The notes beneath the pieces were generated by a model. That model made no database searches. It was not told where the DNA came from and worked only from the letters and a program-made list of their open reading frames with translations. From the NCBI GenBank assembly GCA_041690135.1, contig JAWLHY010000010.1, positions 96,001 to 160,000 of the forward strand: a DNA stretch of 64,000 nt, read 5' to 3'. Origin of the DNA: Armatimonadota bacterium (GTDB taxonomy: Bacteria; Armatimonadota; SYMT01). Below, in pieces: positions 1-9,264 of this stretch. Made by a program: the position numbers and the translations under genes. The stretch's first letter is position 1. Each line of letters begins with the position of its first letter.

Positions 1-1054
1 GGTCGACCCCGATCGGCGAGGCGTACCCCGGCACGGCGCCCGCCGCGCGGATCTCCTCGTCCGTCGCGGGCCGGAGCCAGCGCGCGGAGATCGCATTCGA
101 AATCTTGGTCTCGTTGGCCTGGTGGTCGCCCCGCACCAGCGCCATTACCAGCACCTCGCGCGTGGCGTCGGGCTGAGCGCCGCTCTCGGCCGGCACTGCG
201 GCCGTGAAGAACACCACCTTGGCGGTGCGGCTCTGGGGCACCTGCAGGAACTCCGCCAGCGCCTCGATGCTGCTCGTCCCCGGTGTGGCGACCTTCTCCA
301 GGGGCTGCGCATCCTCGGCTTCAGGGGCATCCTTGCGGAACCGCGCCACCTGCTGGTTCGCGGAGTAGCCGCAAGCGTCGCACACCGCCAGGGTGTCCTC
401 GCCGATGTCGCACAGGAACATGAACTCGTGCGCCAGCTTCCCGCCCATCATGCCGGTGTCGGACTTCACGGCGATGACGTTCGGAAGGCCGCAGCGGCTG
501 AAGATGCGGAAGTAGGCGGTGTAGTGCGCCCGGTACTGCTTCTCCAGGCCCGCCTGGTCCACGTCCAGGCTATAAGAGTCCTTCATCGTGAACTCGCGGA
601 CCCGGATCAGGCCGGCGCGGGGCCGGGGCTCGTCGCGGAACTTGGTCTGGAGCTGGTAAACCAGGGCGGGAAGCTGGCGGTACGAGCGGATCTCCCGGCG
701 CACCAGGTCGGCCACCACCTCTTCGTGGGTCATCGCCAACACGAGATCCCGGTCGGCCCGGTCCTTCAGGCGGACCATTTCGTCGCCGATCTGGTACCAG
801 CGACCCGTTTCCTGCCAGAGCTCGGCGGGATGAACCACGGGCATGGTGATCTCCTGCCCGTCGATGGCGTCCATCTCCTCGCGGATGATCTGCTCGATCT
901 TGGCCATCGACCGGTGCCCGAACGGCAGGTAGGAAAAGATTCCCGCGGCAAGCTGGCGGACATAGGCCGCGCGGAGCAGAAGTTGATGACTCTGCACCTC
1001 TACGTCCGCGGGAGCAGCCCGCAGCGTGGTGCCGAAAACGTGGGACATTCGCAT
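1..1054 (-). CDS. proS: prolyl-tRNA synthetase (5' part; runs off window start)
   Basis: Absent from the ORF track because no stop lies in the window. Manual translation from ATG 1054: MRMSHVFGTTLR...SHQLLLRAAYVRQLAAGIFSYLP...THEEVV...QTKFRDEPRPRAGLIRVREFTMKDSYS, the class IIa ProRS motifs, followed by the editing insertion. Confidence 0.97.
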   Translation of the reverse strand, partial: MRMSHVFGTTLRAAPADVEVQSHQLLLRAAYVRQLAAGIFSYLPFGHRSMAKIEQIIREEMDAIDGQEITMPVVHPAELWQETGRWYQIGDEMVRLKDRADRDLVLAMTHEEVVADLVRREIRSYRQLPALVYQLQTKFRDEPRPRAGLIRVREFTMKDSYSLDVDQAGLEKQYRAHYTAYFRIFSRCGLPNVIAVKSDTGMMGGKLAHEFMFLCDIGEDTLAVCDACGYSANQQVARFRKDAPEAEDAQPLEKVATPGTSSIEALAEFLQVPQSRTAKVVFFTAAVPAESGAQPDATREVLVMALVRGDHQANETKISNAISARWLRPATDEEIRAAGAVPGYASPIGVD

Positions 1055-1245
1055 GGTCGTTTAAGAAATCTTTCTTTCCACCGGCCTTCCTCACCCGCGG
1101 CAGGAATTCCCGGCGGCGGCGAGGGAGTTGTGCACAGGGAGCGAGCGCCGGCTTCCCTCACGGTGGCTCACCCTACCGTTCGATGGTAACGGACGGGCGC
1201 ATCTTCAGGCAAGTTGAGTCTGCAGGTTGGAGGAGAACCCGCCCC

Positions 1246-1524
1246 ATGATCGCCTATAAAGACTTCGTTCCGAGACAGATCCGGGCGCCGCGCCTGTCGT
1301 TCAACCCGGCGGATGCCACGGGAGAATACGAAACCTTCGGCGCCGCCGTGGACGCGGCGAACCGCTGGCTCAAGCAGAACGACTTGAAGGTCCTCCAGAT
1401 GGAGACCGTCGTGCTGCCGAATATCTGGGCAACCTGGGAGCAGGGCACCCAGGACTCCTCGCTGATGACCCACGAGGGCGCCATGTGGCACCAGTTCCTG
1501 CGCGTGTGGTACGAGCTGGAATGA
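1246..1524 (+). CDS. small hypothetical protein (92 aa)
   Basis: GGAGGA upstream of ATG 1246; globular-looking sequence (ETVVLPNIW...QFLRVWY); GC3-biased codons. Confidence 0.8.
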   Translation: MIAYKDFVPRQIRAPRLSFNPADATGEYETFGAAVDAANRWLKQNDLKVLQMETVVLPNIWATWEQGTQDSSLMTHEGAMWHQFLRVWYELE

Positions 1525-1526
1525 GG

Positions 1527-1564
1527 ATGGGGCCTGTTCTTACCCCGGTAAGAACAGGCCCCAT
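1527..1564. terminator. perfect 18-bp inverted repeat; probable bidirectional terminator or REP-like hairpin
   Basis: ATGGGGCCTGTTCTTACC-CC-GGTAAGAACAGGCCCCAT between convergent genes; no clear U-tract. Confidence 0.55.
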
Positions 1565-1708
1565 TGAGACCTGGCAACGAGTACCCGTTTCGGTGCCGGG
1601 AGCCGACGCAGATTTACGCCCGGGTACCCACGGAGTGGGTGTGGGTGTCGGCTTTGCAATATGTAGGCGCGAGTTTACTCGTCCAGCCGCTTTGGAAGAT
1701 CCTCACCG

Positions 1709-4700
1709 TTATTCTTCGAGCTTGATCCCGAAGTGCTGCGCGAACATTGCCTGCGCGATGGGCGCGGCGACCCGCCCGCCCTGTCCGGCTCCTTCCACGA
1801 TGACGGCCACTGCCAGCTTCGGATCGTTTACCGGCGCCAGGGAAATGAACCAGGCGTGGTCATCGCCATGGGGGTTCTCCGCCGTGCCGGTCTTGCCACC
1901 GACTTCCAGTCCCGGAATGCGCGCCCGGCCGCCGGTGCCGGCTTTCACCACACTCGCCATCATCCGGCGGACGTGCTGGGCGGCCTGCGGGTCGACGCCC
2001 GTCAACCAGGGCTCCGGCTCCGTCGTTTGCAGCACGGTACCGTCGGGAGCTTCGTAACGTTCAATCACGTAAGGCTTCATAATCGTGCCGTTGTTGCCGA
2101 TGCCCGCGGCCACCAGGGCCATCTGCAGCGGCGTCACGGCCAGTGGTCCCTGCCCGAAGCCGATCTGTGGCGGGATCGAGGGCCATGGCTCGTTGTAGGG
2201 ATCGAGAAGCCCACGCGCGGTCTCCACCGACATGGGTGGCGTAACCCCGATACCCAGGCGCTTGGCGCCTTCGATCAGGCGTTCCTTGCCCAGCTTCAAG
2301 CCAACCTTTCCGAACGTGACGTTACAGGAGACCCGCAGGGCATCCGCGAAAGTGAGGCCACCGTGGGCCTTTCCCCCGAAGCAGCGCCAGGTATAGTTGC
2401 CTACGCTGGCATAGCCGGGACAGGAGAACCGCGTTTCCGGCGTAACCACGCCTTCGTTCAGGGCGATCGCCGCGGTGACCACTTTGAACGTGGAGCCGGG
2501 CGGATACACGCCCTGGGTCGCGGGGAAGAGCAACGGGTTCCGCGGATCGCTGGTCAACTCCTCCCAGCGTTCGTCCACCCGGTGCAGGGGGTAACGCGGG
2601 TTGCTCACAATCGCGCGGATGGCGCCCGTGCGAGGATCGATGGCCACGATGGACCCCTTACGCTCGCCCAGCAGCTCGGCGGCCTTCTTCTGCAGACCCA
2701 GGTTGATCGTCAGGCGCACGTTATCGCCCGGCAGCGCCTGTGCGGCGCGGTCGAGGGCTCCGGCAATGCTCCGGTAGTGGCGCATTCCCTGCAGCGCGGC
2801 ATCGGCTTCTCCTTCGACGCCTGTCTTACCATGGCGCTGGCTGCTGTATCCCAAAATGCCGGACAGCAGGCTGCCGGTAGGTGTATGCCGCCGGTACTCC
2901 CCATCCTTATAGATGGACTGCGAGATGACCTCGCCATGCACCGAAAGGATCTGCCCGCGGTTGATCTGGGGCGCGATGATCGTGAGGCGAGGATTGTTCT
3001 TACTGCGGGTCAGGGCGCTCGCTTCCCGTATCTGCCAATGGAACAACAGCGCGCCGAGCCCGGCGAAGCCGAGGGTTACGCCCGCCATCACCCAGCCCAT
3101 CTGCCGCTTCCACGAAAAGCGGTTGGGCCGCCGCGCTCGGACCGCCACCGGCTGGGCCGCCGCGCCGCTCACCCCCATGAGCACGCCGATCAGTGCCAGG
3201 TTCACCACCAGCGAGGTGCCGCCGTAACTGACGAACGGGAGCGTCACCCCGGTCAGGGGCAGCAACCGGACGAGCCCGCCCACGATGACCAGGGTCTGCA
3301 GCGCCAGCACGGTGCTGAGGCCGGCGGCGAGGAGACCGAGGAAATCGTCGTCCGCGCGGCGTGCCGCGCGGTAACCCCGGAAGATCAGGATGCCGAGGAG
3401 TGACAGTACCGCCAGTGATCCCAGCAGGCCCAGTTCCTCGCCGATCACCGCCATGGGCAGGTCGGTGTGCGCCGCCGGAATGAGATGCGGAAAGCCCTTG
3501 CCCAGGCCCACGCCTTCCAGGCCACCCGCCGCCAGGGCATACAGTCCCTGGCTGATCTGGTAGCCGAGCCCCTGCGGGTCCTGCCACGGATCGAGCCACA
3601 AGCTCACCCGTTCGCGGACCCGGTCGAAGGCCGCCGCGCTGAGGATCGCGCCGAAGGCGAAGGCGCCGATGCTCACCAGAACGAAGATGACCCGGCCGCT
3701 CGCCATCCCCAGAAACGCCACGAATAGGCCGAAGAAGAGGAGCGCCGTCCCCAGGTCCCGCTGGACCACCAGCAGCCCCAGGGCCACCGCCAGCGCCAGG
3801 ACCATCGGTCCCACGTAGCGGATGTCCGAGCGCGTGAGGCCCCAGCTCCGGCCGGACCGGGCGACCAGCTCCTGGCGCTCGCTGAGCAGCCCGGCCAGGA
3901 AGATCGCCAGCAGCAGCTTCGCCGGTTCGGCCGGCTGGAACTGGAACCCGAGAAGGTTCACGGAGAGCCGCTGGCCCCCGACCTCATTCCCTACAAACAG
4001 GGTGGCCACCAGGAGTCCCAGGCCGGTAACCAGGGCCAGGTAGCGGTACCGTCCCAGGGACTTCAGCGGCAGGACCCCGGCAAGGGTGAGGGCGCCGAGG
4101 CCCAGCCCACCCGCCAGTGCCTGGTTCGTGTAAAGGTCCGGGCGGGTCCGCAGTACGATCGCCAGACCCAATCCGAAGAGGGCCAGTGCGCTCGGAACCA
4201 GCAGCGGGTCGATCACCACGCGCCGGCGTCGCACGAGGAAGGTTGCCAGCCAGGCCCCCGCAACCAGCCCCAGGCTCCACTGGTGTACTTCGGCCGATGG
4301 GGGCCGGGCCGCACTTGCCGTGCCCCAGGCCGACCACTGCATGAAGAGGAAGAGCGAGCTGGAAAGTGCCAGCAGGAACCACACCCACAGGTGCGGCTGC
4401 CAGGGGGCCCGGCGCTCCTGCCGGAAGCGGAACGGCTGCTCCGCCACCTCCACCATGTCGCCGTCTCGCAGCGCAATGCTGCGGTCCAGGCGGACGCCGT
4501 TGACCTTGACCCCCGACTGGCTCCCGAGGTCCTTCATCCAGTAGGTCGCCTGTTCCGGGATCACGGCCGCATGCCTTAAGGCCACGGTGCGGTAGGCCAG
4601 GCGGATATCCGCTTCGGCCGCCCGGCCGATGATCACATCGTGTCCGTTCAGCTCATGCCGCTGTCCCGGCGGCATTTCGCCGCCGGGAAGGGAAATCAGG

Positions 4701-4870
4701 GATGCGCTTCCGGCCCTTCCTTTCCAGGAGCGCAGCGCCAGCTCCCAGATACCGTAAAAAAGGGCCAGCCCAACGAGCAGCCACAGCCCGATCTGGATGG
4801 TTTGGGTATCACCCGGCAGGTACCCGTCGATCCAGTTGAGGGCCGATTGTAGCCAGAGATCAATCCGCAT
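1709..4870 (-). CDS. FHA domain + RodA/FtsW (SEDS) + class B penicillin-binding protein fusion
   Basis: N-terminal TM helix; FHA (IIGRAAEADI...VNG); SEDS motifs FQPAEPAK, QRDLGT, PAAHTD, GVTLPFVSYGGTS; transpeptidase motifs GSTFK, SCN, KTGTAE. One uninterrupted ORF. Confidence 0.95.
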   Translation of the reverse strand: MRIDLWLQSALNWIDGYLPGDTQTIQIGLWLLVGLALFYGIWELALRSWKGRAGSASLISLPGGEMPPGQRHELNGHDVIIGRAAEADIRLAYRTVALRHAAVIPEQATYWMKDLGSQSGVKVNGVRLDRSIALRDGDMVEVAEQPFRFRQERRAPWQPHLWVWFLLALSSSLFLFMQWSAWGTASAARPPSAEVHQWSLGLVAGAWLATFLVRRRRVVIDPLLVPSALALFGLGLAIVLRTRPDLYTNQALAGGLGLGALTLAGVLPLKSLGRYRYLALVTGLGLLVATLFVGNEVGGQRLSVNLLGFQFQPAEPAKLLLAIFLAGLLSERQELVARSGRSWGLTRSDIRYVGPMVLALAVALGLLVVQRDLGTALLFFGLFVAFLGMASGRVIFVLVSIGAFAFGAILSAAAFDRVRERVSLWLDPWQDPQGLGYQISQGLYALAAGGLEGVGLGKGFPHLIPAAHTDLPMAVIGEELGLLGSLAVLSLLGILIFRGYRAARRADDDFLGLLAAGLSTVLALQTLVIVGGLVRLLPLTGVTLPFVSYGGTSLVVNLALIGVLMGVSGAAAQPVAVRARRPNRFSWKRQMGWVMAGVTLGFAGLGALLFHWQIREASALTRSKNNPRLTIIAPQINRGQILSVHGEVISQSIYKDGEYRRHTPTGSLLSGILGYSSQRHGKTGVEGEADAALQGMRHYRSIAGALDRAAQALPGDNVRLTINLGLQKKAAELLGERKGSIVAIDPRTGAIRAIVSNPRYPLHRVDERWEELTSDPRNPLLFPATQGVYPPGSTFKVVTAAIALNEGVVTPETRFSCPGYASVGNYTWRCFGGKAHGGLTFADALRVSCNVTFGKVGLKLGKERLIEGAKRLGIGVTPPMSVETARGLLDPYNEPWPSIPPQIGFGQGPLAVTPLQMALVAAGIGNNGTIMKPYVIERYEAPDGTVLQTTEPEPWLTGVDPQAAQHVRRMMASVVKAGTGGRARIPGLEVGGKTGTAENPHGDDHAWFISLAPVNDPKLAVAVIVEGAGQGGRVAAPIAQAMFAQHFGIKLEE

Positions 4871-5645
4871 GGACCGGGTCCCTCACCTCGGAAGCGGCCA
4901 GGCGGAAACGGAATACGTTTCGGCCGATCCGCACCACGTCGCCGTCGCGCAGGCGGCCGTCGTGTTCCTCATCATCGTTGATCAGGAGCGATGGTCCGCC
5001 ATCCAGCCCTACCTCTTCCAAGCGCCAGGAGTTGCCGTCCGGCTCGATCCGCGCGTACTTCGGCGGAATCTCCGGGTCCTGCAGCCGGATATCGCACTCC
5101 GTGCTGCGTCCCAGGAACATCGTCCGGGGAAGAAGGGTGAACGTCCGGTTCGCATCGGGGCCCCGTTCCACCTGAAGTCTTCCAACGTGCTCCTCCGGCG
5201 CGAACTGGAAGTCGAAACCCAGCCCCTTGCGGGCCGCCTCTTCCGCGAGGCGCACATCGTCTAGCGAACCATGGATGCGCATCCGTCCTCGCCCGACCTT
5301 TTCTTGCGCGGTCAGCGTGACCTGGATGGGACCCGTCACGGCATAGTCGCGGTCGATGACCCACTCGCCGACGAACCGCTGAAATTCGGCCTGCAACTCC
5401 AGCGCGATCGGCTGGAGGGTGGCCATGTCCTTGGGGTGGAGACCCACGACGAAGCGATTGGGGACGAAGACCCGGTTGAGGGTGATGATCTTTTGCTCTT
5501 CCGCCTCACGAGTCAGGCGACGAGCCACCTCCAACGGTTGGATCTTCCCCCGGAGGATCAAGCCGAAAGCGCCTTCCACCACGCTTTCAACCATCGACTC
5601 GAGACGTTCCAGCAGCACTTTTTGTGTTCTCCCGGGATGTTCCAA
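4860..5645 (-). CDS. fhaA: FhaA-like protein (DUF3662 + FHA)
   Basis: N-terminal VEGAF...IQPLEVARRLTRE...PNRFVVGL typical of DUF3662; C-terminal FHA-like fold; overlaps the fusion start by 11 bp. Start codon uncertain. Confidence 0.88.
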   Translation of the reverse strand: MEHPGRTQKVLLERLESMVESVVEGAFGLILRGKIQPLEVARRLTREAEEQKIITLNRVFVPNRFVVGLHPKDMATLQPIALELQAEFQRFVGEWVIDRDYAVTGPIQVTLTAQEKVGRGRMRIHGSLDDVRLAEEAARKGLGFDFQFAPEEHVGRLQVERGPDANRTFTLLPRTMFLGRSTECDIRLQDPEIPPKYARIEPDGNSWRLEEVGLDGGPSLLINDDEEHDGRLRDGDVVRIGRNVFRFRLAASEVRDPVHAD

Positions 5646-5835
5646 AACCTAATGACATCCGGTTATCCCCAGAATGCCAGCTTGCTATTCGCGTTGCACG
5701 ACGGACTTGATTCGGGTTCCGAGAAGTCCGGCACTTCGGCGCGACTCCGGGATAAGGTTCCTCTGCGGGAGAAGCAACGGCGCGCGGGAGACGTGCGCGC
5801 GGTGGGACTGCACGGTAACGTGGGGAGATCGAGGG

Positions 5836-6897
5836 ATGAGGATCATGCTGGTGGGCCGCAACGCCCAGATCGGCGGCGGCAGCACCTTCCGGTTGAATAT
5901 CGGCCGGGGCCTCCAGGAACGGGGCCACCAGGTAGCGATTGCGGCCTCCGGAGGGCCGATGGTGGAGCGCTACCGCAAGGCGGGACTCGCTTTTCACTGG
6001 GTACCCGCCTTCGAGTTCTGCGCCCCCCTCCTCCTCCGCGCAATGAACCACGAGCGGACGGAGTTGATCCACGCCTCGAACACGACCGCGGGCGATGTGG
6101 CGCTGATTGCCTCCCAGAAGTCCGGGGTGCCGCTGGTGGTTTCCCTCCACAACACCATCGCCGATCACGAGGCGCGGCATGTGTGCCTCAAGGAGGCCCG
6201 GCGCATCCTGGTGTTCGACTCCGGGGCGGCCCAGAGCGCCGGCAAGTTCACCCAGGAGTTCGACACGTCGAAGATCCTGCAGCTCCCTCGCCCCGTGGAG
6301 CATCGCCCCATCCGCCAGGAGGACGTGACCCCTCTGGACGTGGTGTACGTGGCCCGGCTGAGCAGTCGCAAGGGCAAGGTGGCGATGAGCCTGATCGAGG
6401 CGTTCGGTGAGTTTGCCCGGGAGAACAGCGGCGCGCGGCTGCGGATCCTCGGGGGCGGCTCACGCAAGGCCGAGGTGACGCGGCTGGCCAACGAAGTCGC
6501 GGCGGCCTCCGGGTGCGAGATCAACGTGACGGGTCCCGTGCTCGATCCCGGCGCGCTGCTCGGCTCCACCGGAGTGCTGGTGGGCGCCGGTTACGCCGCA
6601 CTGGAGGCCGTGATGCAGGGGCGCGCCGTGGTCGGCGCCGGGTTCAACGGCTACGGCATGGTCACCGAGGAGAATCTCTTCGATGCCATCAACTGCAACT
6701 TCGGCGACACGGTCCACCGCTGGGACATGACGTCCGAGAATTTCCTTCAAGCCCTGCGGACCCTTAACACGGCCTGGTCCGACCCCGCGACGCGTTCCCG
6801 CTACTGGGGTCTGGACCGGATTGCGGCGCCCCAGCATGGGATCGCCGCCGTCGCCGCCCGGTTGGAAGCGGTCTACCAGGAAGTCCAGGGCGCCTGA
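5836..6897 (+). CDS. glycosyltransferase family 4
   Basis: MRIMLV...GGG...RGHQV, YVARL..RKG, ALEAVMQGRAVV: GT-B motifs. Confidence 0.88.
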   Translation: MRIMLVGRNAQIGGGSTFRLNIGRGLQERGHQVAIAASGGPMVERYRKAGLAFHWVPAFEFCAPLLLRAMNHERTELIHASNTTAGDVALIASQKSGVPLVVSLHNTIADHEARHVCLKEARRILVFDSGAAQSAGKFTQEFDTSKILQLPRPVEHRPIRQEDVTPLDVVYVARLSSRKGKVAMSLIEAFGEFARENSGARLRILGGGSRKAEVTRLANEVAAASGCEINVTGPVLDPGALLGSTGVLVGAGYAALEAVMQGRAVVGAGFNGYGMVTEENLFDAINCNFGDTVHRWDMTSENFLQALRTLNTAWSDPATRSRYWGLDRIAAPQHGIAAVAARLEAVYQEVQGA

Positions 6898-6931
6898 GCA
6901 AGACCGCCGAGCAGAGGAACCGTTTTGCCCG

Positions 6932-6995
6932 CGGAACACACGGAATTACGCGGAAGGGGACGGAAGCAGACGGAAAAGGACGGAAGGGAGCGGAA
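6932..6995 (+). repeat. seven phased CGGAA motifs
   Basis: CGGAA at 6932, 6941, 6951, 6961, 6971, 6981, 6991. Confidence 0.85.
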
Positions 6996-7131
6996 GGGCC
7001 CCGCGACGGGCTGAAGCCGCACCCCCCGTGTTGGCGAGCTATACGGGCGTTTCGGCGCTCCCGTTACCCTCGGAGGTGTCCGTACGGACTCAGTCCGGCG
7101 AGGAGATGGGCACCCTTATCAGCGATTCTGT

Positions 7132-9264
7132 TTAGACTTCAAACTCCCGTTGAACCACGACCAGGGTGCGATCATCCAAGCGTTCCACAAGCGCCGAGAC
7201 GACGTGGTGGCCGGGAGGAGCCGCGGGAAGGGCGGCGCGATGGTAGCGGTCGATCAACCGGCCGCGCGGATCCCTGGAATGGGCCGGTTGGGTCTCTATG
7301 GGGCGGCCGTCCAGTTCCAGCCGGACCAGGCGTACGCGTTCCTGTTTGAGCACGCCCTGGGTCGTCGCATCGGACCAACAGCGCACCCGCAGCGCAATCC
7401 CCTGTTCCGGCCTGCCGGCCTCGTATGGGTCTTCGGGACGTATTACCGCGACCACGGCGTGGGGGCGTCGGATCGCTTCCGGCCGGTCACCCCACCAGCG
7501 CCACTGGTCTTCGCGGCGGGTCATGAACTCGAGAACCTCGGGCATCCCGTGGCGCCAGGTCTGGTAGTGGGAGAGCGCGTCGTGCCGCACCGCGGCCACC
7601 CAGTTGTTCTTGAGAGCAGTACGCCATGCCTCCCAGGTTGGCTCCGTACCCAGGAACAGGGTGCGGAAGCCTGCCAGCACGTCCGTCCACCACCAAGCCT
7701 CGGTGCCGTGAGCATCCTGCAGCGTAATGAACGGCAGCCGTCCGTAATACCGGTAGAGCCACGGCTCGCTGTTGGGGAAGTCGGGATTGCCGAAGTGGAA
7801 CGTGCTGATGGCCGCATAGCCTCCCCGCTCCACGGACTCGTCCAGAACGGCACGCGCGTATTCTTCGTTATCGCCGAACTGCCAGTAAAGCAGGCCGTCC
7901 GCCTGTTCCAGAGCGGCGAGCCGGCGCTTGCGGAATTCCTTCCAGGTCAGTGGACCGGTGCCGGCAAGGGAAGGCCCCGGGTCCTTCCCTGGGGCCGCCA
8001 TGATGTCGCTGATATGGTTGTAATCTCCCAATCCACCGATAGCGGCGTGCGTCCCGTACTCTTCATTGGCCGGGAAGAAGGTGACCGGAACCCCCCGCTG
8101 TTTCGCAATAGCCTGTGCCGCGGCGATCCAGCCCGGTTTCGCATTCTTCGCGCCCCAGAGATGAATGGTGAGCGCCGCTGCCAGATCTACCGCGTCCGAA
8201 GGGCTGCCGGAACCCGGCGCCTGAACTTGCAGCGTGAATACCTTCAGGTCCTGGGCAATCTTGGGGCGAGTGGTGGCTGGTTGGGTTCGCGGGACCGGCT
8301 TCTCCAGGATGCGTTGACGCTCCCCCAGGGTGTCCACCGCGTCCAGAGCGGAGTAGCACGCTGTGGGGTTTGAATGCCATCCCGGCCGATGACCGAACCC
8401 ACCGTCGGCGTTTCGCAGTGAGGCCAGATAACGAAGCGCCCCTTCCCGATCGACCGGAGCAGCGCCCAACAGATGGAGGGCCCGGAGCGCGGCCCAGGTG
8501 TAGTCCACGTCGTCGACTGCTCCGACGTCGGCACCGGGGGCATAGGTGAAACCGCCAATCGGAAGCTGACACGCCTGCAACCAGCGGATCGTCTCCGCCC
8601 GAAGATCGAGGGGGAGGCCCAGCGCCGCCAGGGATTGGAGACCCCACCACGTGTGCATCACATGCCCATCCCCTCCATCTTCGACCTTGACCTGATTGAA
8701 GCTGCCGTTAGGTCGACGGCGCTCCAGGATGAAGTTCCGCAGGTTGGGCGAAACTTCCGCCGGAGGAAGGCCCAATAACTGCCGGCAGAGTAAGATGTGG
8801 GCCTGGAGTTGGAAGGGCGGATACCGATGCTCCTCATACCGGCTGGTATCGTTCGAGAGGCCGGTCCACCCGACAAATGACTCCCGAAATGGCGTCACGT
8901 CCGCGCCTAGCCAGAGGAGACTGCGTATTTACTGGTATTCGAAGACGGGAAGCCGATGCTCCAGCGTTTTGAGGGCGAAGGGGTGGTGCGTTCGAATGAA
9001 CTCCGCCAGTCTCTCTGCGTGGGGAGGCTTTTGCCCCAGTTGCTGATAGCAACCCACGACGGCATAGGTCGGGGTGAGGTGGGAGCGGTCCTGACCCGCC
9101 CAGCCGTATCCACCGTCCGGTCGTGCCAGGGCTTCCAGGTACTGCAGGAGGCGCTGTTCCCCGGTTGCAGGCGAGGGAGCCGCCTGTGCCGGGAGCACGG
9201 TGGCCAGGCCTCCGCCCGCCAGGGCCTGGAGGCAGCGGCGCCGGTTGATGGAAAAAGGTGACAT
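7132..9264 (-). pseudogene. Tat-signal prenyltransferase/squalene-oxidase-repeat protein with one in-frame TAA (8929-8931)
   Basis: ORFs 8929..9264 and 7132..8898 share a frame: ...VFEYQ*IRSLLWLGADVTPF...; repeats LARPDGGYG, RRPNGSF, CQLPIGGF, LRNADGGFG; N-terminal RRR followed by a hydrophobic stretch. Confidence 0.8.

Follow-up and report, generated by a model that had tools for sequence, protein, structure and literature searches.

The fused gene in the window, by which we mean the whole 64,000-nucleotide stretch of DNA analysed here, from a soil Armatimonadota bacterium (genome G000), is best explained overall as encoding a genuine single-chain synthase of the RodA-PbpA type, in which a covalent tether has replaced phospho-dependent recruitment of FhaB. 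We put the probability of this explanation at roughly 0.7. Two-part SEDS-bPBP fusions are already known, and the FHA-bearing, three-part version is a rare variant of them. What is new is that the serine and asparagine of the FHA pocket are missing throughout the fused proteins, but are kept in stand-alone FhaB.

Architecture of the fused chain and its locus

The original prediction described a single 1053-aa ORF with a TM-FHA segment, a SEDS part and a transpeptidase with intact motifs, overlapping fhaA. The ORF listing, the Pfam matches and the motif alignment all bear out this description (Table 1).

Table 1. Features of the fused gene and of fhaA (positions in the window; residues are those of the 1053-aa protein)
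Feature	Positions	Strand	Basis or remark
fhaA: FhaA_N and degenerate FHA domain	4860..5645	-	261-aa ORF; likely true start near 5618
Overlap of fhaA stop with fused-gene start	4860..4870	-	11 nt, ATGCGGATTGA, read from sequence
Whole fused gene (TM-FHA, SEDS, class B PBP)	1709..4870	-	1053 aa, ATG start, stop codon included
Outside tail, residues 1-26 (variable), and helix TM0, 27-45	4736..4870	-	Hydropathy scan; model helix 23-50
FHA domain, residues 69-151, cytoplasmic loop	4418..4666	-	Pfam PF00498 and PF16697, PDB FHA matches, model strands
Extra helices TMa (161-179) and TMb (195-213), residues 161-213	4232..4390	-	Hydropathy scan and model
SEDS glycosyltransferase core, residues 214-572	3155..4231	-	PF01098; alignment with solved FtsW/RodA
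Basic cytoplasmic SEDS/PBP linker, residues 573-591, 6 Lys/Arg	3098..3154	-	Alignment and hydropathy
PBP membrane anchor helix, residues 592-612	3035..3097	-	Hydropathy scan 592-610; model helix 587-621
PbpA-type pedestal (PBP_dimer_2), residues 613-738	2657..3034	-	PF21922 at 638-706, 40.1 bits vs cut-off 27
D,D-transpeptidase, residues 739-1053	1712..2656	-	PF00905 at 739-1042, 210 bits, E 4.8e-62; fold search

The overlap between fhaA and the fused gene is a layout that suggests translational coupling, and the purine-rich sequence GAGGTGAGGGA lies just 5' of the fused gene's ATG. Because the collection's copy of FhaA (P0272) has 252 aa, fhaA probably starts around 5618 and not at 5645. This pair of genes is flanked by proS downstream and by a divergent GT4 glycosyltransferase gene upstream. 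The DNA context of the fused gene covers two loci, namely that in the window and that in a second genome, G021.

At the N-terminal end of the chain, residues Q26 and W30 of the tail and TM0 are invariant in the alignment of fused proteins. The FHA domain is recognized by Pfam (PF00498, residues 79-141, 45.4 bits against a cut-off of 20.7) and by twenty FHA sequences of the PDB at E <= 0.01, e.g., EmbR (2fez, E 6.5e-7). Its strands (residues 56-151) form a beta-sandwich in the predicted model with pLDDT of about 70-84; confidence in the model as a whole is low (mean pLDDT 67, pTM 0.49), and the position in which it docks the FHA domain is uninformative. One N-terminal helix followed by an FHA domain, located between fhaA and the SEDS part, is the layout of FhaB/FipA (Rv0019c-type), and the fused TM0-FHA segment can be aligned with the stand-alone FhaB of relatives. 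The NCBIfam model FhaB_Rv0019c (NF049868) scores only 39 bits where its cut-off is 125, so this module does not count as an FhaB equivalog. The stretch RRRR (214-217) lies on the cytoplasmic side directly after TMa and TMb, and alignments with two-part and stand-alone relatives start at approximately residue 165-220.

The SEDS core matches PF01098 (FTSW_RODA_SPOVE) at residues 248-568 with 242 bits (cut-off 26.4, E 1.1e-71), covering positions 39-351 of the 356 in the profile, and it aligns with solved FtsW (8bh1) and RodA (8tj3_B, 6bar) structures at E 3e-35 to 2e-29. Its motifs QPAEPAK, RDLGTA and AHTDLP align with QPSEIAK, PDFGAT and AHTDFV of 8bh1, and E315, K318, D372 and D470 are invariant in all 14 fused proteins. 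The aspartate of the H-T-D motif, which we take to be a conserved functional SEDS residue, is thus retained. Also conserved are the equivalents of Glu114, Lys117 and Asp159, which are functional residues of E. coli RodA named in the available text of PMC10449877. The NCBIfam equivalogs ftsW (242.4 bits, cut-off 337.5) and rodA_shape (193.9 bits, cut-off 336.7) are not reached, and the SEDS part is filed as the RodA-PbpA cluster type by its gene context, not as an equivalog.

In the linker that follows, the first half is variable and the stretch FSWKRQ is conserved (mean pairwise identity 0.40). All 14 aligned sequences share the transpeptidase motifs STFK (793-796), SCN (848-850) and KTGT (993-996) without change, and PDB matches are 4mnr (E 1.6e-69) and Mycobacterium tuberculosis PbpA (3un7, E 2.8e-49). 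The PF21922 pedestal, the single anchor helix preceding it and the matches to 3un7 and 3lo7 at E of about 3e-49 identify the PbpA subtype; the PBP2 (MrdA) equivalog TIGR03423 is not reached (311 bits, cut-off 455). By homology, lipid II would be polymerised by the SEDS core, and the product would be cross-linked by the PbpA-type transpeptidase, whose own anchor helix directly follows that core. Separate FtsW- and FtsI-like genes are present on contig C9 of genome G000, and the fused synthase is of the RodA-PbpA kind, not a divisome pair. No MreB, MreC or DivIVA was found in the source bacterium.

Distribution and separate-gene relatives

The architecture is rare. The fused form was found in 2 of the 401 genomes sampled in the phylum, and among 1.84 billion representatives it makes up a single full-length cluster at 50% identity. 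The chain is covered to 99-100%, without a break, by thirteen related protein clusters (57-91% identity; sources lgn, jgi, ncbi and ena), and the independent genome G021 has a fused frame of 1063 aa with no stops. FHA is absent from the 107 other homologues listed, from 14 same-phylum SEDS-bPBP fusions that we scanned and from the other Atlas clusters, and the sister lineage formed by P0016 and P0017 lacks it. We found no mention of an FHA form of the SEDS-bPBP fusion in the literature, and the term "FHA" occurs 0 times in the text and supplement of a 2025 survey (PMC12516126).

That fhaB, rodA and pbpA have become fused, as had been proposed, is supported by same-phylum relatives in which the genes are separate and occur in the same order with a PASTA kinase, i.e., fhaA, fhaB, rodA, pbpA, PASTA kinase. 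This arrangement occurs in genomes of other families of the phylum (G080, G015, G043, G166), and partly in G103 and G069. Among 29 related metagenome loci, none contains the three-part fusion and 28 have the separate-gene layout; the remaining one (L100), in which 5 nt separate fhaB from the rodA::pbpA fusion that follows it, represents an intermediate form. The SEDS tree does not group the FHA-fused clade with two-part fusions of the same phylum, but one common clade is not rejected by the AU test (p 0.141), and either of the two fusion events may have come first.

A further proposal, that kinases and phosphatase are absent from the locus, agrees with what we observed in both fused genomes: the flanks scanned at the window locus and at the G021 locus contain neither a kinase nor a PP2C gene, so both lack the fhaA-fhaB-pstP-rodA-pbpA-pknA-pknB operon with its kinases and PP2C. 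A PASTA kinase is kept elsewhere in both genomes. G000 has one, located on another contig between rpe and aroB/aroK. Given this gene, and given that G000 has 14 Pkinase matches above the cut-off and several PP2C matches, control in trans is possible.

The FHA pocket and the partner FhaA

The five residues that FHA domains conserve best are Gly, Arg, Ser, His and Asn (available text of PMC4238996). The fused protein of the window keeps G82, R83 and H100, and lacks the canonical serine and asparagine, which are replaced by Ala97 and Ser119, respectively. This difference is shared by the whole clade: Ser at position 97 and Asn at position 119 are each found in 0 of 14 fused proteins, in contrast to 29 of 29 stand-alone FhaB proteins. 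At position 97 the fused proteins have Ala or Val, with Ala nearly fixed (13/14). Other pocket residues are mostly retained, i.e., Arg83 in 13, His100 in 13 and S117 in 12 of the 14. P0013 is exceptional in that Arg83 and His100 are gone as well, and it is without a precomputed FHA match. Pfam FHA scores are lower in the fused proteins than in stand-alone FhaB (45-50 versus 61-77 bits), and for FhaA they drop from 67-72 to 27-29 bits. The mean pairwise identity of the fused FHA region is 0.52, and G82, G120, N124, G125, D138 and F147-R-F149 are invariant.

The idea that the FHA domain is a cytoplasmic docking module therefore stands only in part. Hydropathy places the domain in the cytoplasm, but the loss of Ser and Asn, which all 29 stand-alone FhaB proteins retain, means that it is probably not a normal reader of phospho-threonine. 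Because Arg83 and His100 are kept, it might still bind phosphate to some extent.

The upstream ORF contains FhaA_N (DUF3662, PF12401; residues 12-124, 97.8 bits) and a C-terminal FHA domain (PF00498; residues 178-241, 29.2 bits against a cut-off of 20.7), which places it in the FhaA family. Alignments show that its own FHA domain keeps GR, has Pro for Ser and Tyr for His, and lacks S-x-N-G. Across the fused clade, FhaA_N is 62-75% identical to the query over the aligned part, and four clusters (P0280-P0283) have a canonical FHA domain in FhaA, eight (P0272-P0279) have a degenerate one, and 10 clusters of 155-171 aa have none. One canonical FhaA, P0280, seems to be on the same contig as the fused protein P0012, to judge solely by the equal length of their contigs. 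Based on these four clusters and this apparent linkage, phospho-reading may have outlasted the fusion. The synthase had been described as self-contained, but the conservation of fhaA and its apparent translational coupling argue for at least one partner.

Proposed origin, competing explanations and known systems

Comparison with the relatives suggests that the ancestor had the cluster fhaA, fhaB, rodA, pbpA and PASTA kinase, and that the stops between fhaB, rodA and pbpA were lost. Their loss would have put the FhaB module (one helix and FHA) into a cytoplasmic loop before the polymerase. The ancestral FhaB may have been recruited via a phospho-threonine mark from the neighbouring kinase; in the fused clade, the covalent link would have taken over from this recruitment, and the kinase gene would have left the operon. 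The FHA pocket would have dropped its canonical Ser and Asn, yet remained under selection, such that the fused FHA may now serve, independently of phosphorylation, as a regulatory or docking surface whose most plausible partner is the FhaA_N domain of co-translated FhaA. As judged from the sequences, the conjunction of these steps (a phospho-recruited ancestor, covalent replacement, departure of the kinase, a changed pocket and a phospho-independent surface) has slightly better than even odds of being right. A hard-wired kinase switch, with a peptide bond in place of phospho-recruitment, an FHA pocket that was re-purposed and fixed, and FhaA shedding its FHA domain, is a more tentative proposal whose odds we place somewhat below even.

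A less likely, competing explanation is that only gene order has changed, and that the fused FHA domain still reads phospho-threonine with a non-canonical pocket, with the unlinked PASTA kinase and PP2C phosphatases still in control. The retention of Arg83, His100 and S117 in most fused proteins is as expected under this explanation, as are the PASTA kinase in both fused genomes, the many Pkinase and PP2C matches in G000 and the canonical FHA domain in four FhaA clusters. These points are to be weighed against the replacement of both Ser and Asn in every fused protein and in no stand-alone FhaB. The change from Ser to Ala is the same one that disrupted binding by MupFHA, whose Ser-to-Ala and Arg-to-Ala mutants were severely impaired in binding the kinase (available text of PMC4238996). 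The complete loss of FHA from FhaA in 10 clusters also fits badly with a phospho-dependent pathway. We consider it improbable that the FHA domain is a leftover passenger with no regulatory role and that the fusion matters only for a 1:1 stoichiometry of polymerase and transpeptidase. FHA-less two-part fusions are common and evidently sufficient, and both the sister lineage P0016/P0017 and the eroded P0013 agree with a passenger, but an identity of 0.52 in the FHA region among proteins that are 57-91% identical overall, many invariant columns and an almost fixed Ala97 are what one expects of a function that has changed, and not of decay. Finally, genes in relatives are 5-15 nt apart, so a single assembly or sequencing error could join two or three of them into a long frame, and public runs cover the stretch poorly (shares of sampled words 0.05-0.09). 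Such an artefact is hardly credible in view of 14 independent sequences from four sources that read in frame through both joints and conserve the junction sequence, and of the uninterrupted frame of G021. Two runs also yield near-identical 151-nt contigs that span the FHA/TMa joint, each with a single mismatch (X1 at 4296-4446, X2 at 4371-4521). Because 13 clusters keep the chain unbroken, we conclude that it does not result from an assembly error.

If the more tentative proposal of a hard-wired kinase switch is right, nature has supplied in this fusion a piece of "Rosetta stone" evidence for a direct action of FhaB, a poorly understood protein, on the SEDS-bPBP elongation synthase. The fusion would, in addition, exemplify how FHA domains evolve into regulators of wall synthesis that are phospho-independent, here in a bacterium with no detected MreB, MreC or DivIVA.

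The original prediction correctly stated that two-part SEDS-bPBP fusions are known (PMC12516126; available text of PMC10449877). Natural examples are those of Rhodococcus jostii RHA1 (947 aa) and Senegalimassilia faecalis (931 aa) (PMC12516126), and PDB entries 4mnr and 4jbf show the transpeptidase domains of further ones, from Eggerthella lenta and Atopobium parvulum. The query resembles these fusions in the N-to-C order of SEDS core, separate membrane anchor, pedestal and transpeptidase, in the PbpA-type pedestal (PF21922) of the Coriobacteriales example, and in having 4mnr among the top fold matches of its transpeptidase part. Overall identity is 35-45%, and the two-part fusions lack the approximately 215 extra N-terminal residues of the query (TM0, FHA, TMa and TMb). 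Among engineered chains, RodA-PBP2 fusions are functional both in vivo and in vitro, and RodA-PBP2 or SpoVE-SpoVD constructs have lipid II polymerase activity, are bound by Bocillin and complement deletions (available text of PMC6207328 and PMC10449877). By analogy with these active SEDS-first, bPBP-second chains, the order of the query chain would be compatible with function; as described there, the engineered fusions differ from the query in their synthetic linkers, their PBP2-type pedestal and the absence of an FHA module.

The cluster of Mycobacteriales, fhaA-fhaB-(phosphatase)-rodA-pbpA-pknA-pknB (available text of PMC11898655), has the same order of families as the query, i.e., FhaA_N with FHA, TM with FHA, SEDS and PbpA-type PBP, and fhaA, fhaB, (PP2C), rodA, pbpA, PASTA-kinase forms of the cluster occur in other phyla. 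Unlike the Mycobacteriales cluster, the query locus has three of the genes as one chain and no kinase or phosphatase, and both of its FHA domains are missing canonical residues.

Membrane-anchored FHA folds are also found in type III secretion ring proteins (PF16697, Yop-YscD_cpl), whose FHA-like domains, as far as is known, work without binding phospho-threonine. The FHA domains of the fused protein and of FhaA both match PF16697 (34.5 and 49.3 bits, respectively), but these matches overlap the ordinary FHA match, the systems are unrelated and no secretion is indicated. Like the query, HHH_3-SEDS-bPBP fusions of the same phylum have an extra N-terminal module before additional helices; unlike FHA, that module is a helix-hairpin-helix, and these fusions branch elsewhere in the SEDS tree. 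HHH_3 occurs in 6 of the 14 same-phylum fusion frames scanned (3 above the Pfam cut-off), and in 39% of the members of one Atlas cluster whose commonest phylum is Armatimonadota.

An unbroken frame for the FHA, SEDS and PBP parts

The original prediction described one reading frame that carries an FHA domain, a SEDS polymerase and a class B PBP. This observation is confirmed, and the frame is also unbroken in 13 full-length relatives (protein clusters P0003-P0015) and in G021, a second genome of the phylum. The single chain is real and rare. The source genome, G000, comprises 9.1 Mb in 25 contigs, of which C10 contains the window (96001-160000), and is 97% complete; P0008 and P0279, which are close relatives of the window proteins, carry the Armatimonadota label. 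We use family names rather than equivalog names for the parts of the chain, because the NCBIfam equivalogs for FtsW, RodA, PBP2 and FhaB all scored under their cut-offs for the window proteins.

Features of the fused gene, its product and the upstream fhaA ORF (nucleotide positions in the window; residues of the 1053-aa protein)
Feature	Position	Strand	Basis or remark
Fused gene	1709-4870	-	ORF, 1053 aa
fhaA ORF	4860-5645	-	261 aa
TM0	residues 27-45		hydropathy scan
Loop with FHA domain, between TM0 and TMa			115 residues; hydropathy scan
FHA	residues 79-141		Pfam, 45.4 bits
TMa	residues 161-179		hydropathy scan
TMb	residues 195-213		hydropathy scan; RRRR cluster after it
SEDS helices	residues 222-572		hydropathy scan; long outside loop 413-478
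FTSW_RODA_SPOVE	residues 248-568		Pfam, 242 bits
Basic linker, between SEDS helices and PBP anchor			19 residues; hydropathy scan
PBP anchor	residues 592-610		hydropathy scan
PBP_dimer_2	residues 638-706		Pfam, 40.1 bits
Transpeptidase	residues 739-1042		Pfam, 210 bits

The stop of fhaA and the ATG of the fused gene have 11 nt in common, and a purine-rich stretch lies directly 5' of this ATG. A promoter/terminator scan gave no promoter-like site and two terminator-like sites, which is below the count in shuffled sequence, and there was no Rfam match in window positions 1-8000. Because basic residues sit in loops that are necessarily cytoplasmic under the usual orientation of the SEDS core, the FHA domain is predicted to be cytoplasmic and the transpeptidase to lie outside. 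The AlphaFold model of the whole chain, built on an alignment of 14 sequences, is weak (mean pLDDT 67, pTM 0.49). We used it for secondary structure only, as this pTM is too weak for placing FHA relative to SEDS, and its secondary structure matches the hydropathy scan (helix 23-50, strands 56-151, helices 160-183, 192-216 and 587-621).

A protein search with the fused protein gave 649 matches among 8000 scored candidates. Among the best 120 of these 649, the 13 full-length relatives (1049-1098 aa, from four sources) match the query over 99-100% of its length at 57-91% identity, and 12 of them have a precomputed FHA match. A protein search with residues 1-250 gave 3 close relatives, a number set by the word filter. 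The remaining 107 are two-part SEDS-transpeptidase proteins of about 790-1084 aa without FHA, whose source names belong to Coriobacteriia, Anaerolineae and Dehalococcoidia. In the ESM Atlas, too, there are large two-part clusters, of Chloroflexota, Actinomycetota and Armatimonadota, and none of them has FHA. Of 201 sampled genomes of the phylum, only G000 and G021 have full-length matches. The latter belongs to the same family and another genus, and its 1063-aa frame has 67% identity and no stops. The possibility that the architecture is widespread had been raised at the outset; the N-terminal 250 aa as query gave a long-frame match in 2 of 401 sampled genomes of the phylum. Searched against 1.84 billion representatives at 50% identity, the same query recovered one full-length protein (P0008) and the fragments P0123 and P0132; the rest of the 14,028 matches at E <= 0.001 are mostly generic FHA proteins. 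In 46 of these, picked by length and FHA position from the 150 best of the 14,028, Pfam found no SEDS domain; further down the ranking, a generic FHA may still occur in an independently formed FHA-SEDS-PBP chain.

Scans of genome contigs with the N-terminal part and of metagenomes with FhaA were without a match. Among the metagenome matches listed, none of the 29 loci inspected has the triple fusion, which is a weak bound because the scan with alignment A1 missed close relatives: no listed match exceeds 47% identity, although the protein search has such relatives. The 29 come from 36 loci with a match extending into the FHA region; the match ranges of the omitted loci (L080, L081, L085, L088, L111, L113 and L114) duplicate those of L078/L079 or L110. 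Six sequencing runs contain 0.05-0.09 of the sampled words, and among the runs listed no RNA run holds the stretch. With regard to the junctions, at which read coverage had been proposed as a check, the joint between FHA and TMa is spanned by short contigs of near-identical sequence from two soil runs; no near-identical contig among the matches listed spans the SEDS/PBP joint (window 3034-3166).

Catalytic parts and the FHA pocket

The SEDS part aligns over its length with solved structures of FtsW (8bh1, E 5e-35) and RodA (8tj3_B and 6bar), and its QPxExxK, DxG and HTD stretches line up with theirs. The PBP part is closest to the transpeptidase domains 4mnr (1.6e-69) and 4jbf/4n1x (about 2e-60), followed by Mycobacterium tuberculosis PbpA (3un7, 2.8e-49), which comes before SpoVD, MrdA and FtsI. 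The top Foldseek entries are again 4mnr and the 4jbf/4n1x group, with Atopobium parvulum and Eggerthella lenta in their titles. Residues E315, K318, D372, D470, S793, K796, S848, N850 and K993-T-G995 are invariant in all 14 aligned sequences. An identity as the divisome pair FtsW-FtsI was rejected, as contig C9 of G000 encodes FtsW-like and FtsI-like proteins in separate genes and also has an FtsA-like frame.

Our main addition to the earlier account is the loss of canonical residues from the FHA pocket. We aligned the FHA domains of the 14 fused proteins with those of 29 stand-alone FhaB proteins, 25 from metagenome loci and 4 from genomes of the same phylum.

Residues at four FHA positions in stand-alone and fused proteins
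Position (query numbering)	Stand-alone FhaB	Fused proteins
83	Arg 29/29	Arg 13, Ala 1
97	Ser 29/29	Ala 13, Val 1
100	His 29/29	His 13, Arg 1
119	Asn 29/29	Ser 6, Glu 5, Thr 2, Ala 1

According to one study, the five most conserved FHA residues are Gly, Arg, Ser, His and Asn, and mutating Ser to Ala or Arg to Ala in an FHA protein severely impairs kinase binding (PMC4238996). An alignment with EmbR leads to the same mapping, with VSRHH and SSNG in EmbR vs VALRH and SQSG in the fused protein. The view of the FHA domain as a docking module therefore has to be revised, because the canonical pocket is missing. It might be supposed that such a domain is simply decaying. Within the clade, the mean pairwise identity of the domain is 0.52 and many columns are invariant, and because of this conservation the fused FHA looks like a domain of changed function rather than a decayed one.

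Gene layouts and the state of FhaA

We derived gene layouts from Pfam scans of neighbourhoods and from ORF maps. In type A, fhaA, fhaB, rodA, pbpA and a PASTA kinase are five separate genes; this layout occurs in the same-phylum genomes G080, G015, G043 and G166, partially in G103 and G069, and in most metagenome loci, fhaB and rodA being separated by a PP2C gene in some of them. Type B (G092, G054 and G193) consists of rodA::pbpA followed by the PASTA kinase, with fhaA and fhaB not nearby. Type C, fhaA followed by fhaB::rodA::pbpA without the kinase, is the layout of G000 and G021. That same-phylum genomes carry the separate genes in the same order supports the proposal that fhaB, rodA and pbpA have fused. 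At one metagenome locus (L100), fhaB lies 5 nt before a rodA::pbpA fusion.

In a phylogeny based on the SEDS part, the nine rows of type C form one starred clade (100/98), whose sister, P0016, is without FHA, and type B groups with Coriobacteriia-type fusions. A common clade of types B and C is not rejected by the AU test (p 0.141). Within the family to which the query genome belongs, the cassette is unevenly distributed, with FhaA_N, the N-terminal domain of FhaA, in 3 of 7 genomes, one match being weak.

A further layout, type D, is a SEDS-PBP fusion with an N-terminal HHH_3, seen in 6 of 14 frames scanned. These frames are L013, L014, L016, L021, L022 and L024 (genomes G020, G085, G183, G040, G026 and G102), and 3 of the 6 are over the Pfam cut-off. 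One Atlas cluster has HHH_3 in 39% of its members. HHH_3 is a helix-hairpin-helix motif of the DNA-binding type, and on SEDS-PBP fusions of this phylum it often stands in FHA's place. Two other long frames, from related metagenome clusters, could represent additional fusions or artefacts of ORF calling: the 892-aa product of L091:5245-7920 has its SEDS domain in the C-terminal half only (510-870), and the frame L064:3821-6898 (1026 aa) has a kinase domain at 584-833 and includes the PBP match of that locus in its range.

The FhaA of the window has FhaA_N at residues 12-124 and a weak FHA match at 178-241 (Pfam, 29.2 bits). Its homologues form three groups: a canonical FHA domain is present in four clusters (P0280-P0283, 47-53% identity), a degenerate one in eight (P0272-P0279), and FhaA_N alone in ten (P0284-P0293, 155-171 aa). 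In the degenerate group, 5 of 8 clusters have lost the Arg and none has S-x-N-G; Ser has become Pro in 6 of 8, being kept in P0276 and P0279, and 7 of 8 have Tyr, Cys or Gln for the His, which is kept in P0279. Three clusters with FhaA_N alone are on contigs of 4.6-16 kb, so these forms are not all cut by contig ends, and in these three the FHA domain seems truly lost. Across the aligned part, FhaA_N in the clusters that have it alone is 62-75% identical to the query's. We expect that FhaA_N is the part of FhaA that matters. Contigs of equal length suggest how individual FhaA forms may pair with individual fused proteins.

Proposed function and genomic context

FhaB, also called FipA, is a conserved neighbour of rodA and pbpA both within and outside Actinobacteria, but what it does is unclear; the principal paper that a literature search gave for it (PMC2797604) is listed as retracted. 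The natural covalent fusion of FhaB with RodA and PbpA argues that the working partner of FhaB is the synthase itself, and a single polypeptide offers this contact for study. Most likely, the fused protein is a synthase of the RodA-PbpA type in which the FhaB module would have turned into a covalently tethered, phospho-independent regulatory surface, working together with FhaA_N. Three changes coincide in the clade: the fused FHA is without the canonical residues, its partner FhaA undergoes decay, and the operon no longer includes the PASTA kinase gene. Together they would show the outcome of relaxed phospho-regulation of wall synthesis.

Several papers describe related systems. Single-ORF SEDS-PBP fusions exist, as noted with citation of the Rhodococcus RHA1 genome paper (PMC10449877), and 117 InterPro proteins hold both domains (PMC12516126); in the text of the latter study and the available part of its supplement, FHA has no mention. 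An engineered RodA-PBP2 fusion is active (PMC6207328), and the mycobacterial fhaA-fhaB-(phosphatase)-rodA-pbpA-pknA-pknB operon has been described (PMC11898655). A literature search, with most subscription journals outside its reach, found no paper on an FHA-SEDS-PBP chain. FHA adds a third module to the single-chain SEDS-bPBP synthases, which are handy for biochemistry and structure. It is important to emphasize that this is a rare variant from an uncultured soil lineage and that it overturns no model.

MreB is not convincing in G000, where the best PF06723 match (55.8 bits) is partial and in long frames. MreC and DivIVA were not found; we write 'not found' rather than 'absent' for these three proteins because the genome is 97% complete. 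Its sole PASTA kinase gene (C5:452135-453964, L039:8135-9964, -) is remote from the wall-synthesis genes, with rpe (ribulose-phosphate 3-epimerase) and aroB/aroK (3-dehydroquinate synthase/shikimate kinase) as neighbours. The genome has 14 Pkinase matches over the cut-off and several PP2C matches. In G021, too, a PASTA protein is encoded elsewhere in the genome. G000 also encodes a second single-chain SEDS-PBP (C2:75477-78734, L040:7478-10735, +; 1086 aa), which has 27% identity to the first, intact STFK, SCN and KTGT motifs and no FHA. Its N-terminal ~160 aa match no family, and genes for an ABC transporter and a PD-(D/E)XK protein flank it.

Around the fused gene, the starts of fhaA and of a divergent GT4 glycosyltransferase ORF are 28 nt apart as listed (window 5645-5674); given the 252-aa FhaA form P0272, fhaA probably starts later, which would make the promoter region somewhat wider. 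In the 650-nt gap between proS and the fused gene (window 1055-1708), an ORF of 113 aa at 1183-1524 (+) has an ordinary composition, no Pfam family and no counterpart in G021. The two plus-strand ORFs scanned in this gap match no Pfam family, and none of the four ORFs of the gap has a counterpart in G021.
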